A program made the translations under genes and the position numbers. Below the pieces are notes generated by a model, which saw only the letters and a program-made list of their open reading frames with translations, was not told the origin of the DNA and made no database searches. A stretch of DNA of 13,064 bases from Rhodothermales bacterium. GTDB lineage: Bacteria > Bacteroidota > Rhodothermia > Rhodothermales > VXPQ01. Positions 3 through 12,178 of this stretch are shown here, piece by piece. Within the stretch, counting starts at the first letter, position 1, and every line of letters begins with the position of its first letter. The stretch is from assembly GCA_040904565.1 (NCBI GenBank), contig JBBDTI010000058.1, forward strand, positions 97,236 to 110,299, in the 5' to 3' direction.

Positions 3-878
3 GACGTGGATGGGGACGGTGACCTCGATCTGATCCTCGCGGGAGAATGGATGCCGCTGACCCTGTTCGAAAATCGGGACGGGGAGCTCGTCCGGCGCAG
101 CGATTTTATCACCGCTTCGATGGAAGACCCCGAAACGGTTGTGGAAGGTGCCGGCGGAGACCCTCCTGACGGCACTGAGGGGTGGTGGAACGCCGTCCAC
201 CTGGCGGACCTGGACGGGGACGGCGACGCAGATCTAATCGCGCTGAATCACGGCCTCAATTCCCGCTTTCGCGCTTCGCCCGAAGAGCCCGTCCATATGT
301 GGGTGGATGATTTCGACGGAAATGGATCGACGGAGCAGATCCTGGCCGTCTACCGCGATGGCGGTCCATATCCGATTGCCCTCCGCCACGATCTGATCGA
401 CCAGCTGCCGTTTCTTGAGGCAAAATATCCCACCTATGCATCATACGCCGGCCGGACGGTCTACGACGTCTTCTCGGAGGAGCAGCTTCAGCGGGCCGTG
501 CACCGCCAGGTCGTACAGCTTCAAAGCGTGGTGGGATGGAACGACGGGAGCGGACGGTTTCGCATCGAGCCGCTTCCACTGGAGGCGCAGCTGGCACCGA
601 TGTACGGCATCGAAACCATCGAGACGGAAAGAGGGCCGCTCGTTTTCGCAGGCGGCAATCTATACGAGGCCAAACCGCAGGTCGGACGTTACGACGCCAG
701 CTATGGAGCTGTGTTGCGGGCGGATTCGGCCGGATTGCGGTCGGTTTCTTTCGCGCAGAGTGGGTTCGTGGTGACAGGTCCGATTCGACGGCTTGCCACG
801 ATCGTTTCCGGTGATCGCCGGCTCCTTTTGGTCGGGAGAAACGACGATACCCTGAAGGTATACGCGTATGATGATTGA
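3..878 (+). CDS. FG-GAP/VCBS-repeat (CRTAC1/ASPIC-UnbV-type) protein, C-terminal part; 5'-truncated by the window edge
   Basis: The frame is open from position 3 (DVDGDGDLDL). It has repeated DxDGDG Ca-binding FG-GAP motifs. GEWMP, GWW, LxDQLP and GRYDA motifs are collinear with the C-terminal ~290 aa of the next gene. Confidence 0.9.
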   Translation, partial: DVDGDGDLDLILAGEWMPLTLFENRDGELVRRSDFITASMEDPETVVEGAGGDPPDGTEGWWNAVHLADLDGDGDADLIALNHGLNSRFRASPEEPVHMWVDDFDGNGSTEQILAVYRDGGPYPIALRHDLIDQLPFLEAKYPTYASYAGRTVYDVFSEEQLQRAVHRQVVQLQSVVGWNDGSGRFRIEPLPLEAQLAPMYGIETIETERGPLVFAGGNLYEAKPQVGRYDASYGAVLRADSAGLRSVSFAQSGFVVTGPIRRLATIVSGDRRLLLVGRNDDTLKVYAYDD

Positions 879-3800
879 CGCCTACAGGTCGTGCGAGTCG
901 TCGCAGCGCGGGCCGGTGCCTCCAGGCGCCGTTTCCCCAGGGGGCGTGCTCGCGGCCGCCGTTCTCCTGCTCGCCCTCTCAGCCTGTACCGCGCGCGGGC
1001 CGGAGGACCTTCGCCGCTTTACGCTGCTCGATGCGGGCCATACGAACGTGACGTTCTCGAATCGGGTGGCGGATGAGGAGGCGTTCAACATCCTCGAATA
1101 TCTCTATTTCTACGATGGTGGAGGCGTGGCGGTAGGCGACATAAACAACGACGGCCTACCGGATCTTTATTTCACCGCCAATCTGGGCGTCAATCGGCTC
1201 TACGTCAACCGGGGCGACCTGACGTTTGAGGACGTGACGGAGACTGCCGGCGTGGGCGGCCGCGACGATGCATGGTCCACCGGCGTGACCATGGCCGACG
1301 TCAACGGAGACGGATGGCTGGACATCTACGTGTGTCAGGTAAGCTACAAGTCCGTCCACGGGCGCAACCTGCTCTACGTCAACAATCAGGACGGCACGTT
1401 TACGGAAGCCGCGGAGGCGTACGGACTCGATTTCGAGGGGCTGTCAACACAGGCTGCGTTTTTCGATTACGACCGGGACGGAGATCTGGATCTCTACCTG
1501 CTCAATCACGCCGTACATGGCAGGGAATCGTTCGTGGAGGCGTGGCGGCGCATCATCGACGCCCCGCGCGTGGGCGACAGGTTGTATCGAAATGACGGTG
1601 GGCGCTTCACGAACGTGACGAGCGAAGCCGGCATCTACAGCAGCGCGCTCGGCTATGGCCTTGGCGTGGCCATCAGCGACGTGAATCGAGACGGCTGGCC
1701 GGACATCTACGTCGGCAACGATTTTCATGAGAACGATTATCTCTACCTCAACAACGGAGACGGTACCTTCTCGGAAGACCTCCGGCGCGCGATCGGCCAC
1801 ACGAGCCGCTCGTCCATGGGTAATGACGCGGCCGACATTAACAACGATGGGCTCATCGACATCGTCTCCCTCGATATGCTGCCGGAAGATCTGGCGACGT
1901 ATCGCCGCTCGGGCGGGCCGGATCCGAAAGACCTCGTGCGCATCAAGACGAGCTACGGCTACGCACCGCAGTATGCCCGCAACACCCTGCAGCTCCACCG
2001 CGGGCTCGGCCCGGACGGGCTTCCGCGCTTCAGCGAAATCGGACGCTTCGCGGGCATCCACGCGACGGACTGGAGCTGGTCGGCGCTGCTGGCGGACCTG
2101 GACAACGACGGGTGGAAAGATCTCTACGTGACGAACGGCATCCTCCGGCGTCCCAATGACCTGGATTACGTCGCGCATGTCTCTCGTCCCGATGTGCAGG
2201 ACGTTCTGAGGGAAGGTGCGTTCGAGGATCAGCTCGAAGTCATCCGGCGGATGCCCTCGGTCCCGATCCCCAACTACGCATACCGCAACAACGCCGATCT
2301 GACATTTACGGACCGGGCGTCCGACTGGGGACTCGCCGACGCTGGATTTTCTAACGGGGCGGCGTATGGGGATCTGGACGGCGACGGAGATCTGGAACTC
2401 GTCGTCAATAATATCAATGGACCTGCCTCCATCTACCGCAACAACACGGACTCGCTCGACGCGTCCCGATACCTGAGCGTGAAGTTGGAGGGGGACGGGA
2501 TGAATACGACCGGTAATGGGGCGTCCGTCTCGATCTACGCCGGCGAGATGCACTTTTTTCAGGAGCAGTACCCGACGCGCGGATTCCAGTCGTCCGTATC
2601 CCACGTCCTGCATTTCGGACTGGGCGCGGCCGAGATGGTGGATTCCCTGCTCGTCGTCTGGCCCGACGGACGCTACCAGCGGCTCGACTCGGTCGACACC
2701 GGGCGTCGCCTCGCGCTGCGGCAGAGCGATGCGACGGGAAGCTATGCTTTCGACGACGGTGCGTACGAATCCCCGTTGTTTGCCGACGTAACCGACCTGC
2801 TGGGCGTCGATTTCGTTCACCGGGAGAATGAGTATCTGGATTTCGAGGCGCAGCCGCTGATGCCTCACCGGCTGTCTACGCAGGGGCCCGCTCTGGCCGT
2901 CGGCGATGCGAACGGAAACGGACTCGACGACCTCTACGTGGGTGGCGCGCGTGGACAGTCCGCGAGGCTCTACCTCCAGCAGGTCGATGGCACGTTGCAG
3001 GCCACGGCTTCTCCGTTTGACCGCGATAGGGCGCACGAGGATGTGGATGCTGCTTTCGTCGACGTGGACGGCGACGGTGATCTCGATCTGTACGTCGTCA
3101 GCGGAGGTGGGGAGCATGCACCCGGACACGAGCTGCTCCAGGACCGACTCTACCTGAACGACGGCCGGGGTACCTTCGCACGGGCGGAGGGGGCGCTGCC
3201 GGAGGTACGGGCGGACGGCTGCTGCGTGGCAGCGGGAGACTTCGATGAAGACGGTGACGTGGATCTCTTCGTCGGAAGTCGATCGGTTCCCGGTTCGTAC
3301 GGCAGGTCGCCGCAGAGCTATCTCCTCGAGAATGACGGGACAGGCCGATTCCACGACGTGACCGCGGAGCGTGCGCCGAGCCTGCACCGCGCGGGCATGA
3401 TAACCGATGCCGTGTGGGCGGATATGGATGGAAGCGGGCGCAAAGATCTCGTACTGGTAGGCGAATGGATGCCTGTGACCGTGCTTCGAAACACCCTGCT
3501 TCAGGATGAAGGAGCGCGGCTTGTCGACGCTACGAACGAGTTCGGACTCGCCGAATCGACGGGGTGGTGGAGAAGTGTCGCGGCCGCAGATCTCAATGGA
3601 GACGGGAGGATGGATCTGGTCGCCGGCAATCTGGGCACCAACACGGTACTTCGCGCCTCGAAGGAGCAGCCGCTAACGTTGTACGTGGATGACGTCGACG
3701 GGAACGGTACGTCCGATCCCATCATCGTCGAGTACAGAGAGGGGAGGCCTTATATGTGGGCGCGGAGGGACGAGCTGCTCGATCAGCTTCCCGATTTCCA

Positions 3801-4275
3801 GAAGAAGATACCAACGTATTCATCCTATTCGGATGCCGCGCTGGAAGATCTCGTCGATCCGGAGTTGCTGCGAGAAGCCGGGCAAGAGTACGTGCGGACG
3901 TTCCGATCGTCCGTCTTTCAACAACGAGAAGGTGAGGGCTTCGTCCGGCGTGACCTTCCAGACGTCGTGCAGTGGTCGCCCGTGATGGATGTGCTGGTTC
4001 TCGACATCGACGGTGATGGAGAGATGGATCTGATGACGGCGGACAACTTCTTCGGGGCAGACGATAAGCAGGGACGCTACGATGCCGGGTACGGGACGGT
4101 GCTGCTCGGAGACGGGCGGGGCGGATATGAGGCGGTTTCCCTCGGTCGCAGCGGCTTCCTCGTGGAAGGCGAGGCACGAAAACTGGCCTTGCTGCAGGGT
4201 CCGGAGGGGGGACGAGCGGTCGCTGTCGCCCGTAATGACGCCCCGTTACAGGTCTATCGGTTGTTGCTGGATTAA
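868..4275 (+). CDS. FG-GAP/VCBS-repeat lipoprotein with central ASPIC/UnbV domain (CRTAC1-like), ~1135 aa
   Basis: Many DxN/DxDGxxDL repeats. Central 'RGFQSSVSHVLHFGLG...VVWPDG' is a typical ASPIC/UnbV signature. A hydrophobic stretch ends in the lipobox LALSA-C40. The ATGATG start (868/871) overlaps the end of the upstream gene (stop at 876-878). Confidence 0.9.
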   Translation: MMIDAYRSCESSQRGPVPPGAVSPGGVLAAAVLLLALSACTARGPEDLRRFTLLDAGHTNVTFSNRVADEEAFNILEYLYFYDGGGVAVGDINNDGLPDLYFTANLGVNRLYVNRGDLTFEDVTETAGVGGRDDAWSTGVTMADVNGDGWLDIYVCQVSYKSVHGRNLLYVNNQDGTFTEAAEAYGLDFEGLSTQAAFFDYDRDGDLDLYLLNHAVHGRESFVEAWRRIIDAPRVGDRLYRNDGGRFTNVTSEAGIYSSALGYGLGVAISDVNRDGWPDIYVGNDFHENDYLYLNNGDGTFSEDLRRAIGHTSRSSMGNDAADINNDGLIDIVSLDMLPEDLATYRRSGGPDPKDLVRIKTSYGYAPQYARNTLQLHRGLGPDGLPRFSEIGRFAGIHATDWSWSALLADLDNDGWKDLYVTNGILRRPNDLDYVAHVSRPDVQDVLREGAFEDQLEVIRRMPSVPIPNYAYRNNADLTFTDRASDWGLADAGFSNGAAYGDLDGDGDLELVVNNINGPASIYRNNTDSLDASRYLSVKLEGDGMNTTGNGASVSIYAGEMHFFQEQYPTRGFQSSVSHVLHFGLGAAEMVDSLLVVWPDGRYQRLDSVDTGRRLALRQSDATGSYAFDDGAYESPLFADVTDLLGVDFVHRENEYLDFEAQPLMPHRLSTQGPALAVGDANGNGLDDLYVGGARGQSARLYLQQVDGTLQATASPFDRDRAHEDVDAAFVDVDGDGDLDLYVVSGGGEHAPGHELLQDRLYLNDGRGTFARAEGALPEVRADGCCVAAGDFDEDGDVDLFVGSRSVPGSYGRSPQSYLLENDGTGRFHDVTAERAPSLHRAGMITDAVWADMDGSGRKDLVLVGEWMPVTVLRNTLLQDEGARLVDATNEFGLAESTGWWRSVAAADLNGDGRMDLVAGNLGTNTVLRASKEQPLTLYVDDVDGNGTSDPIIVEYREGRPYMWARRDELLDQLPDFQKKIPTYSSYSDAALEDLVDPELLREAGQEYVRTFRSSVFQQREGEGFVRRDLPDVVQWSPVMDVLVLDIDGDGEMDLMTADNFFGADDKQGRYDAGYGTVLLGDGRGGYEAVSLGRSGFLVEGEARKLALLQGPEGGRAVAVARNDAPLQVYRLLLD

Positions 4276-4363: not shown

Positions 4364-4419
4364 GTCGCTACGCCATCGTCGCTACGTCATCGCCTCAACG
4401 CCATCGTCGCAATAGCTTC
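4364..4419. repeat. Four degenerate 14-bp tandem units spanning the GT4 stop codon
   Basis: gtcgctacgccatc / gtcgctacgtcatc / gcctcaacgccatc / gtcgcaatagcttc at 4364, 4378, 4392 and 4406. Confidence 0.6.
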
Positions 4420-5697
4420 GTCATAGTAGTTCGATATATTCTGTAGGGTTTGCGACCAGTCATACGACGCTGCGGCCGCACGAGCACGTCGGCCCATGGT
4501 CTCTCGGAGCGCGCGGTCGCGCACCAGACGCCGTGTGCGATCGTAGAACGCATCCGCATCACGCGGCGGAGCCACGAGCCCCGTCCTCCCGTCGGCGACG
4601 TGCGAGCCGGCGCCGGTCCCCGCGGCGCAGACGACTGGGAGTCCGGATGCCATGGCCTCTACGATCACGTTGCCGAAGGCTTCGCTGTCGCTAGGGAAGA
4701 GGAATATGTCGGATGAGGCATAAGCGGTGGACAGGGCGTCGCCGTCGAGGTGCCCGGTAAAGATCGTTTCGGTAAGGCGTTTCCGGAGCGATTCGCGAAG
4801 CGGCCCATCGCCGACGATGAGACTCCGGACGTTCGAACCATCGCGGTGCAGCCGCTCTATGACGGACGCCGCAACGTCGAGCCCCTTTTCCCGGACGAGC
4901 CGCCCTACGTAGCTCACGACCACGTCGTCCGGCGCGAATCCGTGCCGAGACCGCCATGCGGCAGAACGGCAGGACGGATGGAAGCGCTCGCAGTCGACAC
5001 CGCGACTCCACAGGCGGATCGGTTCGACGATGCCGTGGCGGTTCAGATCGGAAGCCGTCTCCGTCGTGGGAACGTAAAGATGAACGCACCGGCCGTAGAA
5101 CCACTTCAGGTACGCATAAAGCGGACGTTCCATCCAGGCGAAATGGTAGTAACGAAGGTACGTGGGGAAGTGCGTATGGTACGTGGCCACAAGCGGAACG
5201 CCCCGGGCATTCGCCCACGTCATCGCAGCGATCCCGAGTAGATCCGGCGTGGCCACGTGGACGAGGTCGGGGGCAAATCGATCCAGGCGCCGCCGTGCTC
5301 GCCTCGGAAGGCCGAGAGAGAACCGATACTCGGGTCGACCAGGTACCGGAAGAGAGGGCAGCGCTGTAAAGGCGCGGTCCCTTCCGGCAGGCAGAGGCCC
5401 ATCGGGAGCAAACACGTGAAGCTGGTCTCCGCGAGACTCCAGAAAGGTTACCAGGCGTCCCAGCGTGCGGGAGACGCCGTCGGTTACCGTAACGAAATTA
5501 CCGGTAAATAGAGCGATGCGTCGGCCGGACGACGGCGAACGCAGTGGCTGCATCGACACGGGGCCACTGTCGGCCGTACGTATCTTCCGGGACGATGGCG
5601 CGCGTAAAAGGGTCTCCGGTTGCTCGACGGCCGAATCCAGGTTCAAACCGGACAAGGCCGGCGAGGGACGTCCCTCGCCATGTGTTCTGAATGTCAT
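4387..5697 (-). CDS. Glycosyltransferase family 4 (GT-B fold; PimB/MgtA- or SqdX-like subgroup)
   Basis: N-domain 'IALFT...DGVSRTL', 'TYHTHFPTYLRYY' and 'WSRGVD..RFHP'. C-domain 'VGRLVREKG' and the EX7E motif 'EAFGNVIVE'. ATG 5697 has AGGAGG 5 nt upstream; an alternative ATG at 5553 lies nearer the recognisable domain. Substrate cannot be assigned. Confidence 0.9.
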   Translation of the reverse strand: MTFRTHGEGRPSPALSGLNLDSAVEQPETLLRAPSSRKIRTADSGPVSMQPLRSPSSGRRIALFTGNFVTVTDGVSRTLGRLVTFLESRGDQLHVFAPDGPLPAGRDRAFTALPSLPVPGRPEYRFSLGLPRRARRRLDRFAPDLVHVATPDLLGIAAMTWANARGVPLVATYHTHFPTYLRYYHFAWMERPLYAYLKWFYGRCVHLYVPTTETASDLNRHGIVEPIRLWSRGVDCERFHPSCRSAAWRSRHGFAPDDVVVSYVGRLVREKGLDVAASVIERLHRDGSNVRSLIVGDGPLRESLRKRLTETIFTGHLDGDALSTAYASSDIFLFPSDSEAFGNVIVEAMASGLPVVCAAGTGAGSHVADGRTGLVAPPRDADAFYDRTRRLVRDRALRETMGRRARAAAASYDWSQTLQNISNYYDEAIATMALRR

Positions 5698-5700
5698 ACT

Positions 5701-5772
5701 TCCCTCCTGTAGGAATGATGGAATGTGCTCTGGGGCCGCAGGCGCGGACTTTCAGCACATTCTCAGGAGAGA
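5701..5772 (-). promoter_or_regulatory. Predicted nested stem-loop sequestering the GT4 Shine-Dalgarno
   Basis: On the minus-strand RNA, UCUCUCCUG (5772-5764) pairs with CAGGAGGGA (5709-5701), giving 8 Watson-Crick pairs plus 1 G-U. It encloses a perfect 9-bp inverted repeat, gaatgtgct (5721-5729) / agcacattc (5754-5762). Confidence 0.5.
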
Positions 5773-6125
5773 TACACGCAGAGGACCGAAAGGGGATGGG
5801 AAAAGGGGAGGCGATCCGAATCCGACCCCAAAGCGGTGATCGGTCGGCGGCTTGGCGCCGGTACCGACAGCGGCATGTGGAGATGCTCGATGGCCAGAAG
5901 CACGTCGGTACGGCGGTCTCCCACAATCACTGGTTGGAGTACCGGCGCATCGGGAAATAGATCGTCGCGCTCCTCCGCCGGCGGATCGACGCACATTTCG
6001 TAAAACGATGCGGGAGCGTCCGTCCCCGTTGTGCCGGTGCATACGGCCCGCTCAACGCCACCTTCCGGCAAGAGCAATACGCTCGCCAGGAGCATTAGGG
6101 CGATATGCAGTCCTCGTCGCATCAT
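5763..6125 (-). CDS. Hypothetical 120-aa protein with N-terminal signal/TM segment; candidate regulatory leader ORF
   Basis: MRRG plus a hydrophobic core (LHIALMLLASVLLLP), a Pro/acidic linker and a hydrophobic C-terminus (PLSVLCVYLS). It fills the gap between the GT4 gene and the divergent AT-richer spacer. RBS is weak. Confidence 0.55.
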   Translation of the reverse strand: MMRRGLHIALMLLASVLLLPEGGVERAVCTGTTGTDAPASFYEMCVDPPAEERDDLFPDAPVLQPVIVGDRRTDVLLAIEHLHMPLSVPAPSRRPITALGSDSDRLPFSHPLSVLCVYLS

Positions 6126-6178
6126 ATACTAAATACTCTCATTTCCGCCCTTGCGTTTCGTGTTACCTGCGTGCCGTC

Positions 6179-6207
6179 TTGTGCCCACGTCGTTCGCTTT
6201 GTATTGT
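6179..6207 (+). promoter_or_regulatory. Possible sigma70-type promoter for the DyP module
   Basis: TTGTGC (6179-6184), a 17-nt spacer and TATTGT (6202-6207), in a locally AT-richer divergent intergenic region. A second -10-like TACAAT lies at 6217-6222. Confidence 0.25.
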
Positions 6208-6254
6208 TACGTCATGTACAATGGAACGCGGCTAGCGCGAGGTTGGATCGGAAC

Positions 6255-7625
6255 ATGGCGAAGGCAGGCTACCAGAACGGGTTGACGATCGTCACGCCCA
6301 TCTCGGAGGGGAGAATGGATGCCCTCCGGGATACGCTGCAAGTGATCGAGGATGACGTAGAGGAGAACGACCTCGTTCCGCTCTCGAGCTGCGAACGCAT
6401 TCACTTCGCCCGCTGGATCATTTTGGAAGCGTCGACGGACGCCACGGGCCGTCCGACGCCGGCTGTGCTCATTTTCTCGACCAACTTCGACGCACCGCTA
6501 GCGGCGCATCTCGACGAGCTGTACGAGCACGGCGCGTCGGGTCTCGACCGGATTTACAGCTGCTGTGACGGCTATCCGGGGCCGCATGAGCGTACGAAAA
6601 CGCGCGTACTTCAGTATCTGCGCGATCGCGAGGCCGGGTACAACACGCTCTACGTCGGCACGCGTGGATTGACCGTGCCGCGGATCCGGCGCGAGGCGGA
6701 GCTGCGCGACGCGATTGAAGGTTTTCTCGACGATCGGATCACGCAGCCGGATTTTCTGGAGCAGCAACCGGGTGCTATTCGCGAGGCGATCCGCGCGTTT
6801 GTGCAGGGACGGGACGATCTACGCTGGGCGATGGAAGCACCCCCCGAGCCGCGTCGTTTCTGGCCGACGTCGAAGGATGCCTGGATAGCGATCGCGGTGC
6901 TTGTCGTGGTGGGCGCGCCCATCGGTTTCGGTATCGCGACGTCGCCGTCGACCGGATGGGCCACGTTCGGTGCACTCCTGGGGGTGGTCGCGGTCGTACT
7001 TGCAGCAGGGGCTGCCGTGCTGCGCTACAAGGAGAAAAGGGACCGCCAGGATCCGGCAACGACGAACTTCGAACACGTCGCCAGCTTGCTGGAGCGTGAA
7101 GACGTCCGCTCTGAAGGCCGCCCCATCGTCCAAAACCAGATGAGCAGCGTCACGAATATCAAAATCGGCTGGTTTCGGCGTACGCTCCTCCGCGGGGTCC
7201 TGGCGGCGATCGATGTGGCTGGGCGCTATATTTATACAAAAGGAAAACTCGGCTCCATTCCGTCGATCCATTTTGCCCGATGGGTCGTCATCGATGGCGG
7301 CCGCCGGCTCCTCTTCTTCAGTAATTTCGACGGAAGCTGGGAAAATTACCTCGGTGATTTCATCGATAAGGCCGCCAGCGGGTTGACGGCCGTGTGGAGC
7401 AATACGGACGGCTTTCCGCGCTCGCGCTGGCTGGTGGGAGACGGCGCTACGGACGAGCAGCGCTTCAAGGCCTATGCACGCAACAGCCAGACGATCACCG
7501 AAGTGTGGTACAGCGCCTACAAATATCTATCGGTTCAGAATATCAACAATAACGCGCAGCTCCGTGCCGGGCTCGTCGGTTCGCAGACGGAGGAAGACAC
7601 GGCGGCGTGGCTGCGGCGATTCTAG
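6255..7625 (+). CDS. Uncharacterised DyP-associated membrane protein with two homologous IHFARW domains flanking a 2-TM hairpin (~456 aa)
   Basis: Internal duplication: QNGLT..IHFARW..LIFSTNFD..GLDRIYS..GYP versus QNQMS..IHFARW..LLFFSNFD..GLTAVWS..GFP. Two hydrophobic helices at ~6879-7022. ATG 6255 (GGA upstream) is preferred over 6105 because domain 1 starts right after it and 6105 overlaps the divergent ORF. Confidence 0.85.
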   Translation: MAKAGYQNGLTIVTPISEGRMDALRDTLQVIEDDVEENDLVPLSSCERIHFARWIILEASTDATGRPTPAVLIFSTNFDAPLAAHLDELYEHGASGLDRIYSCCDGYPGPHERTKTRVLQYLRDREAGYNTLYVGTRGLTVPRIRREAELRDAIEGFLDDRITQPDFLEQQPGAIREAIRAFVQGRDDLRWAMEAPPEPRRFWPTSKDAWIAIAVLVVVGAPIGFGIATSPSTGWATFGALLGVVAVVLAAGAAVLRYKEKRDRQDPATTNFEHVASLLEREDVRSEGRPIVQNQMSSVTNIKIGWFRRTLLRGVLAAIDVAGRYIYTKGKLGSIPSIHFARWVVIDGGRRLLFFSNFDGSWENYLGDFIDKAASGLTAVWSNTDGFPRSRWLVGDGATDEQRFKAYARNSQTITEVWYSAYKYLSVQNINNNAQLRAGLVGSQTEEDTAAWLRRF

Positions 7626-7736
7626 CGGGTGCGGTCGTGCGGCACCTCTTCGTCGCCGATATCGTCTGCGATGCCGATCCCTGCCGAAAGGCTAATTGCC
7701 GGCAGCAACGTGAAGCCGGTAGCAATATGAACACGA

Positions 7737-9176
7737 ATGGATGCAATGCAACCCATGGCGCAACTCGAACACGACGACATTCAGGGTTTTATCGTACGCG
7801 GCTACGGCAGGCTGCCTGAGGCGTCCTATCTTCTGCTGCACGTCTCGGATACTGCCGGCGCTCGGGAGTGGCTCGGTGAGATGGTCGAGCTCGTCACGCC
7901 GAGTACGACCAAACCGCCTGATGCCGCGTATCACGTCGCCTTTACCTGCGAGGGGCTGCGTGCTCTGGGCGTGCACGAAGACGATCTGAATACGTTTTCT
8001 CTACCCTTTTTCGAGGGGATGGCGGCGCCTCGGCGCACGCGTATTCTCGGTGACATGCACGAGAGCGCTCCTTCGGAATGGCGATGGGGCGGTCCGGACA
8101 CCGACGCCGTCCACGTACTCGTTCTCCTGTTCGGCCGCGACGAGGAGGCGCTCGAGACGGCCTGTGCGAAAGTACGGAATGCCTACCGGGGCGTCACGGA
8201 GCTGGCCCGCCTCGATACGTATAGTTTCGAACCGATACGGGAGCACTTCAGTTTTCGCGACGGCATTGCCCAGCCGATTATCGAGGGACTCAGTCGCACC
8301 GGTCCACCCGAGAACACGCTGCCTCCCGGTGAATTCATTCTCGGCTACGAAAACGCGTACGACAAGCTGCCCGCGAGTCCGACCGTAGCCCCCGAGCGCG
8401 ATCCGGACGTACTTCTCCCGCGCGTCGACGCAGTGACCGATGGAGGGAATGCGTCCGTCGTGGGCGATTTCGGCCGCAACGGCTCCTACCTCGTTTTTCG
8501 GCAGATGAGTCAGGACGTCAAGGGGTTCTGGGACTTCATCAGTAGCATTGCGGAAGACATGTACGGCAGCAGTGACTCGATGACGCGCACGCGGATTGCG
8601 GCCAAGATGGTCGGGCGCTGGCCCAGCGGCGCCCCGCTGGTCATGTGCCCTCATGCCGATGACGAGGAGCATGCGGACAAGGACAACTTCGGCTACGCGG
8701 ACGATCCGCACGGCACGATGTGTCCGGTCGGCTCTCACATCCGACGAACGAATCCCCGTGACGCCCTCGAAGGGTCGGCCGAGGAATCCATCACCGTCTC
8801 CAACCGGCACCGCCTGCTGCGCCGCGGCCGGGCATACGGCGCGCCGATCTCCGACACGATCGATGTGGACGAGATTCTTGGGGCCGAGGAGGAGCATGAA
8901 GAATGCGGGCTGCATTTCATCTGCCTCAATGCTGATCTGAGCCGGCAGTTCGAGTTCGTGCAGCAGACCTGGGTCAACAATGCCAAGTTCGGTGGACTCT
9001 ACACCGATGCCGATCCGCTGTTGGGGAATCACGACGCCTCGGATACCACCTTTACGATGCAGCGTGAACCCGTACGAGAGCGCATTACGGGCATGAAGCG
9101 CTTTGTGGAGGTACGCGGCGGGGCCTACTTCTTCCTGCCTGGCTTACGCGCCCTTCGATATCTCGCCACGTTGTAA
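7737..9176 (+). CDS. DyP-type (dye-decolorizing) heme peroxidase, long cytoplasmic type
   Basis: 'DIQG' N-terminus, EHFSFRDGIAQP (distal Asp motif), NGSYLVFRQMSQDV, KMVGRWPSG, CPVGSHIRRTNPR (proximal His), LLRRGRAYG (distal Arg), GLHFICL..QFEFVQ..W and GGAYFFLPG. The start could be 7737, 7746 or 7755. Confidence 0.93.
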   Translation: MDAMQPMAQLEHDDIQGFIVRGYGRLPEASYLLLHVSDTAGAREWLGEMVELVTPSTTKPPDAAYHVAFTCEGLRALGVHEDDLNTFSLPFFEGMAAPRRTRILGDMHESAPSEWRWGGPDTDAVHVLVLLFGRDEEALETACAKVRNAYRGVTELARLDTYSFEPIREHFSFRDGIAQPIIEGLSRTGPPENTLPPGEFILGYENAYDKLPASPTVAPERDPDVLLPRVDAVTDGGNASVVGDFGRNGSYLVFRQMSQDVKGFWDFISSIAEDMYGSSDSMTRTRIAAKMVGRWPSGAPLVMCPHADDEEHADKDNFGYADDPHGTMCPVGSHIRRTNPRDALEGSAEESITVSNRHRLLRRGRAYGAPISDTIDVDEILGAEEEHEECGLHFICLNADLSRQFEFVQQTWVNNAKFGGLYTDADPLLGNHDASDTTFTMQREPVRERITGMKRFVEVRGGAYFFLPGLRALRYLATL

Positions 9177-9197
9177 ACACACTCTTTCGGACGGACC

Positions 9198-9812
9198 ATG
9201 AAGCTTCGCCAACTCGACCTGCGGACGGACATCCTGCCGTTCGTCATCGCGACGGCCGGCGAATTCGCCGCGCTCTTCTTCTGGCTCAAGTACCTGGACG
9301 AAGGACGTTTCATCTTCGCCAACCTCGTGCTCTGGGCCGGCTTCGCCGTGGAGCGTGCGGCCGTCTATCTCTGGATCCGGTTCATCTACCGGAAGAAGGA
9401 GGGACGCACGGAATCCCAGCCGCTTCTCGTTACACTGGCGGGTCTGTTTTTCATCACCCTGTCAGAGATCCTGATCTGGATTCTCTGGCTCTCCATCGCC
9501 GGCGGCGACATCTCCTGGCTGGCGTCGAGTTTTACGGTGAACTTCACCCTGGCGGGCGTGATCTTAATGGGATTGATGCTCGTCGAGCACAGCGTCGAGA
9601 TGGCGGCGCTGCGACGTACGAAGCCGCTGGCGTACATTCGCAGCCCGAACACCATTCTCTTTACGTTCATGGAAGTGGCTGGGGCCATGGGCTGGCTCTA
9701 TTTTGTTCGCGCGGATCGCCCCGTCCTGGGGGCCGTTTGCCTGCTTGTGGGACTCTCGATCGAGCACGTCCTGCAAGGCAGCGAACTCCGTCCGGATGAG
9801 GTGCCGCTATAG
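9198..9812 (+). CDS. Uncharacterised 6-TM membrane protein with three internal helical-hairpin repeats
   Basis: 204 aa with six hydrophobic segments. TxxE-x6-WL and L-x5-[VI]E[RH] each occur three times. It starts 21 nt after the DyP stop, with a GGA-containing RBS-like sequence. Confidence 0.85.
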   Translation: MKLRQLDLRTDILPFVIATAGEFAALFFWLKYLDEGRFIFANLVLWAGFAVERAAVYLWIRFIYRKKEGRTESQPLLVTLAGLFFITLSEILIWILWLSIAGGDISWLASSFTVNFTLAGVILMGLMLVEHSVEMAALRRTKPLAYIRSPNTILFTFMEVAGAMGWLYFVRADRPVLGAVCLLVGLSIEHVLQGSELRPDEVPL

Positions 9813-9898
9813 GGAACGGCGCACTGCATCGTTACCGGCGCCTTCATTCCGACTCGAGGAACGGAGGATCACGAGCGAGGAGGAATGATGCGGAACGG

Positions 9899-10513
9899 TC
9901 AGTCGAGCGCAAACACGATCCCGAATTTTACGGGGATGAACTGCGTCGGATCGTCATCCGTAAAAATTACGTCATAGTTGATCTCAGCGAACAGGTTCAA
10001 TCCGTCCGCGACCGGAAATTGAGAGCCCACACCCACCAACAGTCCCGGCTTCGTCTCGGAATCCGTTTCGAATGGTGTGGTGATACCTCCTCCGGTGACC
10101 GTGCCTTCGCTGAAGCTGACGCGACGGATACCCCCCTGGGCGTGCACGTACGGAATGTTGGGTGATTCGATGCTGAACTGGTATCGCAGTCCGACAGAGG
10201 CGGAGAGAATGGACATGCCGCCGCCCTTGACCTGGACGTTCAGTCCACCGAGCCCGAGATCGTCCAGCAGGCGGCCCGCGTCAAGCGGCGTCATAGTAAA
10301 AGATACGTCCGCCTCCAATCCGTATTCGGAGGCAAGAACGCGTATACCGGAGAAGCCAACCATGAACCCCGTCGGATAATAGTCCGCCGCCTCTTCGGGC
10401 GCGATCGACCTGTTGAGCCCTCCGTAGGCCTGCAGGAGCGAAGAAGTCGTTTGGGCTCGCAGGGGGATGACGAGGAACGATACCGCGAGGACGGTCAGGA
10501 TGAGCGTTTTCAT
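9899..10513 (-). CDS. Outer-membrane beta-barrel protein (OmpA-TM/OMP_b-brl-like), ~204 aa
   Basis: Signal peptide MKTLILTVLAVSFLVIPLRA-Q from ATG 10513. Amphipathic strands include ASVGLRYQF, PYVHAQGG, GLLVGVGSQF and LFAEINY, with a terminal strand KFGIVFALD. The 89 codons upstream in the ORF track look non-coding. Confidence 0.85.
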   Translation of the reverse strand: MKTLILTVLAVSFLVIPLRAQTTSSLLQAYGGLNRSIAPEEAADYYPTGFMVGFSGIRVLASEYGLEADVSFTMTPLDAGRLLDDLGLGGLNVQVKGGGMSILSASVGLRYQFSIESPNIPYVHAQGGIRRVSFSEGTVTGGGITTPFETDSETKPGLLVGVGSQFPVADGLNLFAEINYDVIFTDDDPTQFIPVKFGIVFALD

Positions 10514-10670
10514 GGTGAGCGTGTTTCGCAAAGGGCGGTCCGGGTGATGGGGAGCGGGCCCTGCAAGGCGGCCCCCGGTCGTATACTCCAGAGGGGCGCG
10601 GCGGTTACAAGCCGGGTGAGACCCCGACATCCGTGTTTGCTCCAGATACCTGGAAAGGCGATATTTGCGC

Positions 10671-10802
10671 ATGGCGATTCCTGCACGAATCCGACCTTTT
10701 GCGGTACTGGCCGTGGCCGTACTCGTTATTTTCAACGGCAGTGCTCCGGTGTCGCCACCCATTGCGACCGATCCGTCCAAACGTTCCCGTCGATTCTACT
10801 GA
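10671..10802 (+). CDS. Possible 43-aa single-TM/signal-like small protein
   Basis: Manual translation: MAIPARIRPFAVLAVAVLVIFNGSAPVSPPIATDPSKRSRRFY*. The stop TGA overlaps the GAGG RBS of the next gene. RBS is weak (GGAAAGG at 10652-10658). Confidence 0.3.
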   Translation: MAIPARIRPFAVLAVAVLVIFNGSAPVSPPIATDPSKRSRRFY

Positions 10803-10810
10803 GGCCGATC

Positions 10811-12178
10811 ATGCACCGGACGATCATCACGTTTCTTCTGCTCATTCTGCTAGCGTCGGGATGCACCACGCCAGGCGATGATGACTCCGTACCGGATCGC
10901 CACGTCGTCGTTATCAGCATCGACGGATTTCCTGCCGAGGCGCTGTGGGACGAGCGGATTCCGCTGCCTACGCTCCGGGCTCTGGCAAACGACGGGGCCT
11001 GGGCGCGCGCGCTGAGTCCATCGACGCCTTCGGTCACGTGGCCCAACCACACGACGCTGGCGACGGGCGTGCATCCCGAGCGACACGGCGTCTTGATGAA
11101 CGGACGCTTCGTGCGATCCGGTCCGGGCGAGCCGGTGAGGAAGCAGAACGATCTCGATCGAGCGGAGATGACAGCGTACCCCAGCCTCTACGATGCGGCC
11201 TACGAGGCGGGGCTCGTGACGGCGGAGGTCAACTGGCCCGTCACACGCGGTGCGGAGACGCTGCATGCGAGCTTTCCGGATGCGCCAGGAGCCGTGGATC
11301 ATATGACGGAGAGCCTGCGGACAGAGCTGGTGGAACTCGGGATTCTTGCGGACGAGTCGGGCGAGTTGTTCGGGCGGATGAGCTACGCCGGTCGCGATCA
11401 CGTGTGGACCTCCGCGGCAGCGCACGTGATCCGCTCGCGTCGACCGAACGTGTTGCTCTTTCACCTCCTGAGTGTGGATGGGACGCATCACGCCTACGGT
11501 GCCGGATCGCAGCCCGCCTTTACGGCGCTCGCTTTCGCCGACGCGCAGGTCAGGTACGTGCTCGACGCGCTGGAAGAAGCCGGCATTCGGGACCGTGCGA
11601 CGATTTTCGTCGTGTCGGACCACGGCTTTATGAATGTGAGCCGGCGGATCTATCCCAACGTGTTGCTCCAGGAAGAAGGATTGCTCGAGGTGGATGCGGA
11701 CGGACAGCCGGTCTCCGCGCGCGTCCACGCGCTCTCGAACGGCGGCTCCGCGATGGTCTTCGCGACGGATCCCGCTACGAAGGACGAGGATCTCGATCGT
11801 GCCCGGCAGCTGTTCGAAGGGGCCGAGGGCATCGCGCGCGTGCTAACGCCCGACGAGTTCGAGGCCTTCGGACTGCCGGATCCCTCGGACAGCGACCAGG
11901 TGGGCGACCTCGTCCTCGGTGCGGCCCAGGGGTATTCCTTCAGTGAGGCCGCCACCGGAGACTACGTCCGCGAGCTCGACGGCCCGAGCGGCGTGCACGG
12001 TTATTTCAGCGATGTCGAGGAGATGGAGGCTCTCTTCATCGCCTCAGGAAGCGGCATCCGTTCGGGTATCGAGCTCGACATCGTCGACAACCGCTCCATC
12101 GCCGCTACGGCCGCCCGGCTTCTCGGCGTCCCGCTCGAGACGGCGGACGGACAGGTGCTGGAGGAAATTCTCGAGTAG
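10811..12178 (+). CDS. Ectonucleotide pyrophosphatase/phosphodiesterase (NPP, alkaline phosphatase superfamily) lipoprotein, ~455 aa
   Basis: ATG 10811 with GAGG upstream and lipobox LASG-C. Motifs: ISIDG, PSVTWPNHTTLATG (Thr nucleophile), DGTHH, SDHG and GVHGY. Confidence 0.92.
   Translation: MHRTIITFLLLILLASGCTTPGDDDSVPDRHVVVISIDGFPAEALWDERIPLPTLRALANDGAWARALSPSTPSVTWPNHTTLATGVHPERHGVLMNGRFVRSGPGEPVRKQNDLDRAEMTAYPSLYDAAYEAGLVTAEVNWPVTRGAETLHASFPDAPGAVDHMTESLRTELVELGILADESGELFGRMSYAGRDHVWTSAAAHVIRSRRPNVLLFHLLSVDGTHHAYGAGSQPAFTALAFADAQVRYVLDALEEAGIRDRATIFVVSDHGFMNVSRRIYPNVLLQEEGLLEVDADGQPVSARVHALSNGGSAMVFATDPATKDEDLDRARQLFEGAEGIARVLTPDEFEAFGLPDPSDSDQVGDLVLGAAQGYSFSEAATGDYVRELDGPSGVHGYFSDVEEMEALFIASGSGIRSGIELDIVDNRSIAATAARLLGVPLETADGQVLEEILE

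Follow-up and report, generated by a model that had tools for sequence, protein, structure and literature searches.

Several described systems join a haem peroxidase to a partner in the membrane. In EfeUOB and Ftr1, a DyP-family peroxidase is encoded beside a Glu-rich polytopic membrane protein. The tri-haem QPO and E. coli YhjA are peroxidases held at the membrane, and YhjA is thought to take electrons from the quinol pool, according to the accessible part of PMC10301912; the accessible part of PMC4899803 gives cytochrome bd as a precedent for a quinol-fed peroxidase. In DUOX, a domain of the animal haem peroxidase family is fused to a polytopic membrane redox module (PMC4420034, in excerpt). 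Here we analyse a stretch of 13,064 nts from a Rhodothermales bacterium (contig JBBDTI010000058.1; hereafter the window), and in it the protein encoded by the open reading frame (ORF) at 9198..9812, a six-helix membrane protein for which we use the working label TM6. The TM6 system resembles the peroxidase and membrane-partner pairings above, and it is a member of none of them.

We find that the TM6 family is dedicated to partnership with haem peroxidases, of three unrelated kinds: class-V DyPs, cyclooxygenase-like (COX-like) enzymes and di-haem cytochrome c peroxidases. The partnership with these three types, on either side of the membrane, looks obligate, and TM6 probably connects the peroxidases to the membrane. 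The pattern of conservation points to a likely central Glu/His site, in which a metal is plausible. We know of no physiological electron donor, oxidant source or role for most bacterial DyPs, COX-like enzymes and RoxA-like di-haem proteins. One membrane module recruited by all three types gives a testable handle on their cellular roles, and suggests that the missing partner of these enzymes is to be sought in the membrane (quinone, O2 or lipids).

TM6 occurs with three types of haem peroxidase

In the window, TM6 is the last gene of a conserved cassette formed by a membrane-anchored double ABM-barrel protein, a cytoplasmic DyP and TM6. We located 34 genome loci by two peptide patterns from the TM6 alignment; many of these loci are kin, so that the counts are descriptive and non-independent. 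A peroxidase is fused or adjacent to TM6 in 25 of the 34 (17 DyP, 6 di-haem and 2 COX-like). We keep out of the 25 the locus L022, an 867-aa ORF of fusion-like length whose domains were not scanned. Amongst 28 metagenome loci, 19 have a peroxidase partner, which is a DyP in 11 cases and a di-haem protein in 8.

The 17 genome loci in which a DyP adjoins TM6 include 16 with an ABM-like gene. The records with a DyP cassette come from Rhodothermales, Salinibacter, Cytophagales-type Bacteroidota, Gemmatimonadota, Chloroflexi and one Roseobacter metagenome-assembled genome (MAG). Four loci (L013, L051, L055 and L056) have the alternative order TM6-ABM-DyP. A neighbour scan of the loci found no conserved neighbours beyond the three cassette genes. 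In an Aquimarina sp. record (L008, 3282-5996, + strand), the ABM-like gene and the DyP share one 904-aa frame with no stop between them, an arrangement suggestive of a single functional unit.

Fusions to a peroxidase are present in 7 of the 16 longer or odd-length homologues that we scanned. One is a DyP-TM6 fusion (P0136), and six join an animal haem peroxidase to TM6 (P0213, P0214, P0219, P0230, P0231 and P0187), as do the cyclooxygenase-like loci L027 and L030. In the animal-type fusions, the TM6 part can be N- or C-terminal. Amongst solved structures, prostaglandin H synthases come nearest to the fused animal-type domains (1e-49 to 2e-60), and the COX-like domain keeps the distal His and an L-Y-R-W-H stretch that aligns to the Y-H-W-H of COX. 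A RoxA-like di-haem cytochrome c is fused to TM6 in L019-L021, and adjacent to it in L006, L023 and L025; the di-haem domain of L019 matches NF040606, 'di-heme-cytochrome C peroxidase', at 5e-150. A dedicated search for longer (fused) forms of TM6 scored none, which by the tool's own account is weak evidence.

TM6 is rare, and its distribution is patchy. In a sample of the phylum, just one genome out of 201 has it, the window's own, yet records with TM6 span six phyla or more. An accessory cassette that moves horizontally would be expected to show such a spread. The carriers include records titled Aquimarina, Agaribacillus, Rhodopirellula and Novipirellula, and between natural fusions and cultivable hosts, experiments on the system are practical.

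Some loci show other arrangements. In two Planctomycetota loci (L024:5638-10903 and L029:5968-10971), a TM6 homologue without a peroxidase neighbour lies ahead of a gene for a Ser/Thr protein kinase that has AAA_16/NACHT and TPR domains; the synteny may have been inherited, or the module may serve another purpose there. In an Anaerolineales MAG (L032:3595-6609, + strand), a 1004-aa frame carries the TM6 module at its C-terminal end. The approximately 800 residues that precede it have no Pfam, NCBIfam or PDB sequence match, and they could be a fourth type of partner or the product of a mis-called start in GC-rich DNA.

TM6 is built from three hairpin repeats

The gene and its repeats are as follows.

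9198..9812 (+): TM6 gene, six-helix membrane protein of an unnamed family; from the ORF and its translation, 204 aa, ATG start, stop codon at 9810-9812
9198..9401 (+): hairpin repeat 1, aa 1-68; T19, E22 and W29 in helix 1, L45, E52 and R53 in helix 2; from hhalign and conservation
9402..9608 (+): hairpin repeat 2, aa 69-137; T87, E90, W94 and W97 in helix 3, L123, E130 (variable), H131, S132 and E134 in helix 4
9609..9809 (+): hairpin repeat 3, aa 138-204; T156, E159 and W166 in helix 5, L182, G185, E189, H190 and G194 in helix 6

A preliminary description of the window, made from the sequence, had read this protein as six transmembrane (TM) helices in three hairpin repeats, and our analysis bears that out. 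Hydropathy gives six hydrophobic segments. An AlphaFold2 (AF2) model built with 32 homologues has a mean pLDDT of 92.2 and a pTM of 0.88, with helices at 8-34, 38-68, 76-101, 112-139, 150-171 and 175-197. The residues that the description had singled out are all found at their positions. The first helix of each hairpin (helix A) has the set T/E/W at 19/22/29, 87/90/97 and 156/159/166, with a repeat spacing of 68 and 69 residues, and the second (helix B) reads L45-x5-V-E52-R53, L123-x5-V-E130-H131 and L182-x5-I-E189-H190.

The repeat is weak on the single sequence and real at the profile level. Smith-Waterman comparison of the hairpins against 500 shuffles gives z-scores of 2.3 (R1-R2), 4.2 (R1-R3) and 1.6 (R2-R3). 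When sub-alignments of the hairpins are compared with hhalign, the scores are 95.1% (E 3e-8) for R1-R2, 98.1% (E 7e-14) for R1-R3 and 96.6% (E 6e-10) for R2-R3, and the T, E, W, E and R/H positions share columns across the hairpins. Single helices also pair, A with A at 60-94% and B with B at 78-95%, while helix A against helix B reaches at most 7.9%, and reversed or column-shuffled partners at most 1.2%. Because the profile scores are high and the controls clean, we read TM6 as the product of triplication of a two-helix hairpin. Repeat 2 has a loop insertion of about 10 residues (about aa 103-112), which in the alignment is found in the closest relatives, of Salinibacter/Rhodothermales type, and in a few others.

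Five Glu and two His are near-invariant and may form a buried layer

We collected homologues in two sets, 114 in a 90% clustered collection and 124 representatives at 50% identity; all source names listed for them are 'hypothetical' or 'uncharacterized'. Conservation was counted on 182 relatives of 170-270 aa out of 232, dropping the other 50, which are fragments or fusions. Amongst the 182, the Glu residues are kept in 180 (E22), 178 (E52), 179 (E90), 179 (E159) and 176 (E189), and the His residues in 180 (H131) and 177 (H190). The Trp residues follow with 180 (W29), 179 (W94), 167 (W97) and 168 (W166), and the Leu residues with 177 (L45), 171 (L123) and 166 (L182). Positions 87 and 156 are T or S. 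E90, W94 and H131 show no change across a set of 73 members whose identity goes as low as about 25%, and T19, E22, W29, E52, E159, E189 and H190 are kept in at least 90%. The preliminary description had an acidic residue in every helix and expected the Glu and His residues to be conserved; the conservation holds for five Glu and both His (176-180 of 182), and the sixth acid does not hold, as position 130 is E in 113, Q in 31 and L in 16. In the same helix, E134, absent from the description's list, is kept in 151. At position 53, 145 members have R and 24 have H.

In repeats 1 and 3, the helix B Glu follows the helix A Glu by 30 residues and the His or Arg follows it by 31, and repeat 2 gives the same +30/+31 spacing once the 10-residue loop insertion is removed. 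As the spacing is equal and helices A and B are antiparallel, these residues would lie at about equal depth. The layer would fall near the middle of each ~22-residue span, that is, at the centre of the bilayer, and would be composed of E22, E52, E90, E159 and E189, of H131 and H190, and of one cation at position 53 or 130. The three Trp of helix A (at +7) and the three Leu of helix B (at -7) would be about two turns away, towards loops 1-2, 3-4 and 5-6 on the periplasmic side. The Thr/Ser of helix A (at -3) and E134 would be one turn towards the termini, on the cytoplasmic side. Such a buried site would be closed to the periplasm by Trp and Leu, and reachable from the cytoplasm by way of Thr/Ser and E134. 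The Glu of each of the six helices is also placed on the conserved face, -39 to +18 degrees from the conservation moment, by a partly circular test in which the moment is significant in 4 of the 6.

The variable positions of the layer change together. The commonest states at positions 53/130/134 are R/E/E (94 members), R/Q/E (19) and R/L/E (12). Members with H53 often have S, T or A at 134 (H/E/S in 7, H/E/T in 4 and H/E/A in 2). The six COX-fused proteins P0213, P0214, P0219, P0230, P0231 and P0187 have W, S, Y or T at 53 and K at 130. A single cationic residue thus appears to be retained while it shifts between repeats (R53, K130 or H53), and this charge-swap covariation fits one shared buried site.

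TM6 partners are found on both faces of the membrane

Lys and Arg are richer on the side of the termini and of loops 2-3 and 4-5 in 179 of 182 members, with a mean of 8.2 against 1.8 on the other side, and for this reason we assign TM6 as a polytopic inner-membrane protein with both termini predicted inside (N-in/C-in). The partners support this topology independently. The window DyP has no signal peptide, and in the DyP fusion P0136 the DyP domain leads directly into helix 1. The di-haem fusion L019 (867 aa) has a seventh hydrophobic helix at 214-247 ahead of a domain with two CxxCH, and this seventh helix is predicted to carry the chain to the periplasm. The separately encoded di-haem partners of L006, L023 and L025 have signal or lipoprotein-like N-termini. 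With DyPs that lack a signal, and a seventh helix or signal peptides for the di-haem proteins, the partners therefore occupy either face of the membrane. What is common to both faces is the bilayer, with its quinone and O2.

TM6 matches no named family

Relative to searches of Pfam, NCBIfam and the PDB, TM6 is new both as a protein family and as a peroxidase partner. The protein has no Pfam match at E 0.01 and no NCBIfam match. Searching Pfam with 73 diverse members at E up to 1 produces scattered single matches, none of them consistent. The TM6 profile has 0 matches amongst all PDB sequences at E 10, and the model has 0 Foldseek matches in the PDB at E 0.001 or better. In a VIA-align comparison of the model with 48,161 chains, the best score is Z 6.7 for the RdhB-type chain 8q4h_D, a three-helix anchor protein (88 residues, three helices only). 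The best of the re-ranked Foldseek list is a rhodopsin at Z 6.4 and rmsd 5.9. Values of Z 6.4-6.7 are in a range that the tool describes as a common arrangement for helical bundles, below meaningful. The ESM Atlas places TM6 in unnamed clusters (0.90-0.92) and in no usable named one. We found no description of the TM6 module or of the cassette in the full-text literature, a search whose coverage excludes subscription journals. A match to a characterised family would have argued against the preliminary description's proposals, and the Pfam, NCBIfam, PDB sequence and fold searches found none.

Several candidate families were tried and rejected. HXXEE (PF13787) is matched by one of the 73 members at E 0.049, and hhalign against six PF13787 members gives 0.2%. 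For the FTR1/EfeU permeases (PF03239), the 204 aa contain no R-E-x-x-E, as the preliminary description had remarked, and the acidic motifs are instead T-x-x-E and E-[RH]. At E up to 1, none of the 73 members matches FTR1, a search of the window's own genome with the FTR1 model is empty at 1e-10, and hhalign of TM6 against a shallow 3-sequence FTR1 profile gives 0.1%. Membership in EfeUOB is rejected as well: the window DyP lacks a signal peptide or hydrophobic segment and scores 29.9 bits with TIGR01412 against a 428-bit cut-off, and the remaining conserved gene of the cassette has an ABM fold and is not EfeO. TM6 also differs from EfeUOB in its six helices and lack of REXXE, in a DyP free of any Tat or signal peptide, in the absence of an EfeO-like gene, and in pairing with two further peroxidase families.

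The TM6 di-haem fusions are comparable to QPO and YhjA in overall layout. TM6 itself has no CxxCH, its di-haem domain being a separate partner or a fusion, and membership there is rejected; QPO and YhjA have a single TM helix plus an additional haem c domain, whereas TM6 has six helices and serves the cytoplasmic DyP and COX-like enzymes too. The membrane module of DUOX is a NOX-type di-haem ferric reductase with FAD/NADPH domains, whereas TM6 is unrelated to it in sequence and fold and has no nucleotide-binding domain, and its production of H2O2 would be hypothetical. The alternative oxidase (AOX), PTOX and ferritin-like proteins share with TM6 four to five Glu and two His, on hairpins with a Glu on the first helix and a Glu and a His on the second. 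They differ in being soluble or monotopic four-helix bundles with E...ExxH, whereas TM6 has three hairpins, is fully transmembrane and has the E and H of its E...E-H adjacent. There is no significant fold or sequence match to this group (ferritins occur in the Foldseek list as insignificant rows at E 2.6-4), and membership in it is rejected. Mitochondrial carriers also have six TM helices in three homologous hairpin repeats, with the termini on the same side, and the alignment of TM6 to UCP1 reaches only Z 5.8 (169 residues, rmsd 5.8). The threefold hairpin repeat is present in TM6, but its repeats are of 68-69 aa against about 100, matrix helices and PX[DE]XX[KR] are missing, and Pfam Mito_carr has no match.

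Possible functions of TM6

The cytoplasmic and periplasmic partners share the bilayer, with its quinol and O2, and for this reason we propose, tentatively, that TM6 is a membrane redox or metal module that would couple bilayer quinol or O2 to the peroxidase. A redox or catalytic partner fits better than a permease, since the same module serves partners on both sides of the membrane. Metal ions or protons may occupy the layer, because burying five carboxylates would otherwise be costly. Four to five carboxylates and two His are the ligand set of di-iron and di-manganese carboxylate proteins such as AOX, which is a quinol oxidase. The Glu5-His2 layer may bind quinol, a metal centre or both, the simplest form of the centre being a dinuclear carboxylate site of Fe or Mn, and TM6 would be the membrane redox subunit of a peroxidase complex, oxidising membrane quinol. 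It could do so in two ways. It could pass quinol electrons to the peroxidase, making the pair a quinol peroxidase, an option that has precedents in that YhjA and cytochrome bd take quinol electrons. Alternatively, it could reduce O2 to peroxide for the peroxidase to consume, with a logic like that of DUOX; it counts in favour of a peroxide supply that no matched electron-transfer geometry would be needed with three different folds. The DyP and COX-like partners keep their key residues and look competent as peroxidases.

In its most specific form, the proposal would make TM6 the first fully transmembrane pseudo-threefold protein with a carboxylate-bridged di- or multinuclear Fe/Mn centre in the middle of the bilayer (Glu5-His2 and one Arg or Lys). 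Driven by quinol and hard-wired to haem peroxidases, TM6 would generate oxidant for them or donate electrons to them. We consider this full version unlikely. If true, bacteria would have their own version of the 'oxidase plus peroxidase' pair known from DUOX, or else quinol peroxidases would gain a new class, and three peroxidase superfamilies would each have recruited the module on their own, on both faces of the membrane. Whatever the cofactor of TM6 is, solving it could extend the known types of redox or ion site in membranes.

A number of observations weigh against the redox module. Neither sequence nor fold searches find any similarity of TM6 to a known quinol site, di-iron protein or cytochrome, and TM6, which lacks CxxCH, has just two invariant His. 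For electrons to pass from the middle of the membrane to the haem of a soluble domain, a relay would be required that evolved with three separate folds. The COX-like and RoxA-like enzymes may be dioxygenases, which need no external electron donor. The convergence of the layer residues is drawn from sequence geometry, and the conservation-moment test is partly circular as the Glu residues themselves add to the moment. Finally, eight genome loci (L024, L026, L028, L029, L031, L032, L033 and L034) and 9 of the 28 metagenome loci have no recognised partner, at least 5 of the latter being on contigs of less than 1.9 kb.

Other explanations start from the same layer. TM6 could be a cation or proton channel or transporter whose acidic layer selects or binds Fe2+, Mn2+ or H+, the peroxidase oxidising or using the ion as in EfeUOB and Fet3-Ftr1. 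A mid-membrane layer of five Glu with one compensating Arg or Lys resembles the ion-binding sites of transporters, three hairpin repeats without inverted topology around an axis recall carriers and channels, and the top folds, weak as they are (Z 5-6.4), are helix-ring proteins (rhodopsins, TRIC and UCP1). Manganese-oxidising animal haem peroxidases exist. DyPs can oxidise Mn2+, according to the accessible part of PMC10820274. Set against this, none of our searches (Pfam with 73 members, the FTR1 model in the own genome, hhalign at 0.1%) relates TM6 to FTR1 or another transporter family. DyP and COX-like partners in the cytoplasm and di-haem partners in the periplasm are hard to reconcile with a single direction of transport, and the periplasmic half would hold a conserved Trp/Leu layer and no polar path, if the depths are right. 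A transporter keeps a small chance in our judgement. These same points disfavour the metal transporter of EfeU kind suggested in the preliminary description: there is no FTR1 similarity, the DyP is read as cytoplasmic and partners occur on both sides. The interpretation in the preliminary description is overall partly supported, and an EfeU/FTR1-type permease is not supported. The chance is somewhat smaller for TM6 as a membrane enzyme or gate in the oxidation of lipids, isoprenoids or carotenoids, which would release, present or convert a substrate or hydroperoxide, with Glu and His as an acid-base or metal-hydrolase catalyst. The partners do lean that way, as the prostaglandin H synthases nearest to the fused animal-type domains (1e-49 to 2e-60) are fatty-acid oxygenases, the di-haem partners bear the RoxA-like domain of rubber (polyisoprene) oxygenases, and the protein of the first cassette gene shares its ABM fold with cofactor-free oxygenases and cyclases acting on aromatic polyketides; beta-carotene is listed amongst DyP substrates in what is accessible of PMC10820274. 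But a lipid-binding groove needs no five buried carboxylates, TM6 is not similar to known intramembrane hydrolases or cyclases, and genes of lipid or carotenoid biosynthesis are not conserved around the cassette.

Two simpler roles appear less probable still. TM6 could be a mere membrane anchor or scaffold for the peroxidase, with the polar layer as a structural network of hydrogen bonds and salt bridges. The fusions show that TM6 tethers enzymes, and the R53/E134 and K130 swaps look like the maintenance of a salt bridge. We think this improbable: one or two helices would be enough to anchor a peroxidase, the cassette already holds a TM hairpin in its first gene, and five Glu and two His that stay near-invariant down to approximately 25-30% identity over several phyla are conserved far above what structural anchors are. 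At the bottom of our ranking, and very improbable, is a role in handling haem, by transport, insertion or the binding of a b-type haem through H131 and H190. Every partner is a haem protein, two neighbouring repeats each hold an invariant His, and many Trp are conserved. However, attachment of haem c in the periplasm has dedicated systems, cytoplasmic DyP and COX-like enzymes can use cytosolic haem, five carboxylates would be unusual around a haem pocket, and TM6 has no similarity to haem-handling families or cytochromes b.

The cassette in the window

The two genes that precede TM6 in its cassette are these.

7737..9176 (+): class-V (C/D-type) DyP haem peroxidase, 479 aa; PDB and TIGR01413 matches, without signal peptide or hydrophobic segment
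6255..7625 (+): first cassette gene, orf506, an ABM/SchA-like barrel with a TM hairpin; frame open from 6105, homologues align from M51 (nt 6255)

The DyP ends 21 nts before the start of TM6. In the PDB, the 479-aa protein matches the Deinococcus radiodurans DyP 8re3 best (3.8e-63) and, after it, fungal D-type DyPs, DyP2 and AnaPX, and its TIGR01413 score (1.8e-27, 96.5 bits) is slightly below the cut-off of 100.5. It has the DyP fold together with the regions of the proximal His and the distal Asp and Arg; these regions, F-x-D175-G (distal Asp), H334 (proximal His) and R403 (Arg), are invariant in 14 cassette DyPs. As neither a signal peptide nor a hydrophobic segment is found, we read the protein as cytoplasmic. 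The predicted complex of DyP and TM6 scored 0.00, which gives no verdict either way.

In the first gene, orf506 (506 codons, 6105..7625), the true start is probably M51 at nt 6255, since all 10 aligned homologues begin there. The protein has an internal duplication, each half with an IHFARW motif and an FSxNFD-like motif and both halves with an invariant His, and a TM hairpin at aa 257-309 of the 506-aa frame lies between the two halves, interrupting the barrel. It has no Pfam, named-family or PDB sequence match. The AF2 model (pLDDT 82.9) shows a pseudo-dimeric ABM/SchA-like alpha+beta barrel, and the VIA matches are 9lmn_A at Z 14.9 (rmsd 4.5, 228 aligned), 9ltx at Z 12.0 and 3mcs_A at Z 10.6, with Foldseek also giving 9lmn_A (E 7.8e-5). 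The two ferredoxin-like halves place orf506 with the ABM, or dimeric alpha+beta barrel, proteins by fold alone.

Neighbouring genes

A scan of 5600-10000 for promoters and terminators gave nothing informative. Upstream of the cassette, 3..4275 (+) encodes two FG-GAP/ASPIC-UnbV repeat proteins, one of 1135 aa, and 4387..5697 (-) encodes a divergently oriented GT4 glycosyltransferase whose best NCBIfam match, N-acetylglucosaminyl phosphatidylglycerol synthase, scores 165 bits, far under the 480-bit cut-off. Neither the FG-GAP/ASPIC-UnbV nor the GT4 genes are kept beside the cassette in other loci. Downstream, an outer-membrane beta-barrel ORF at 9899..10780 (-) overlaps the listed TTG start of the ORF at 10451..12178 (+), a 575-aa phosphodiesterase/nucleotide pyrophosphatase. 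The Pfam domain of the latter begins at residue 152, and for this reason its true start is probably near nt 10800-10900.

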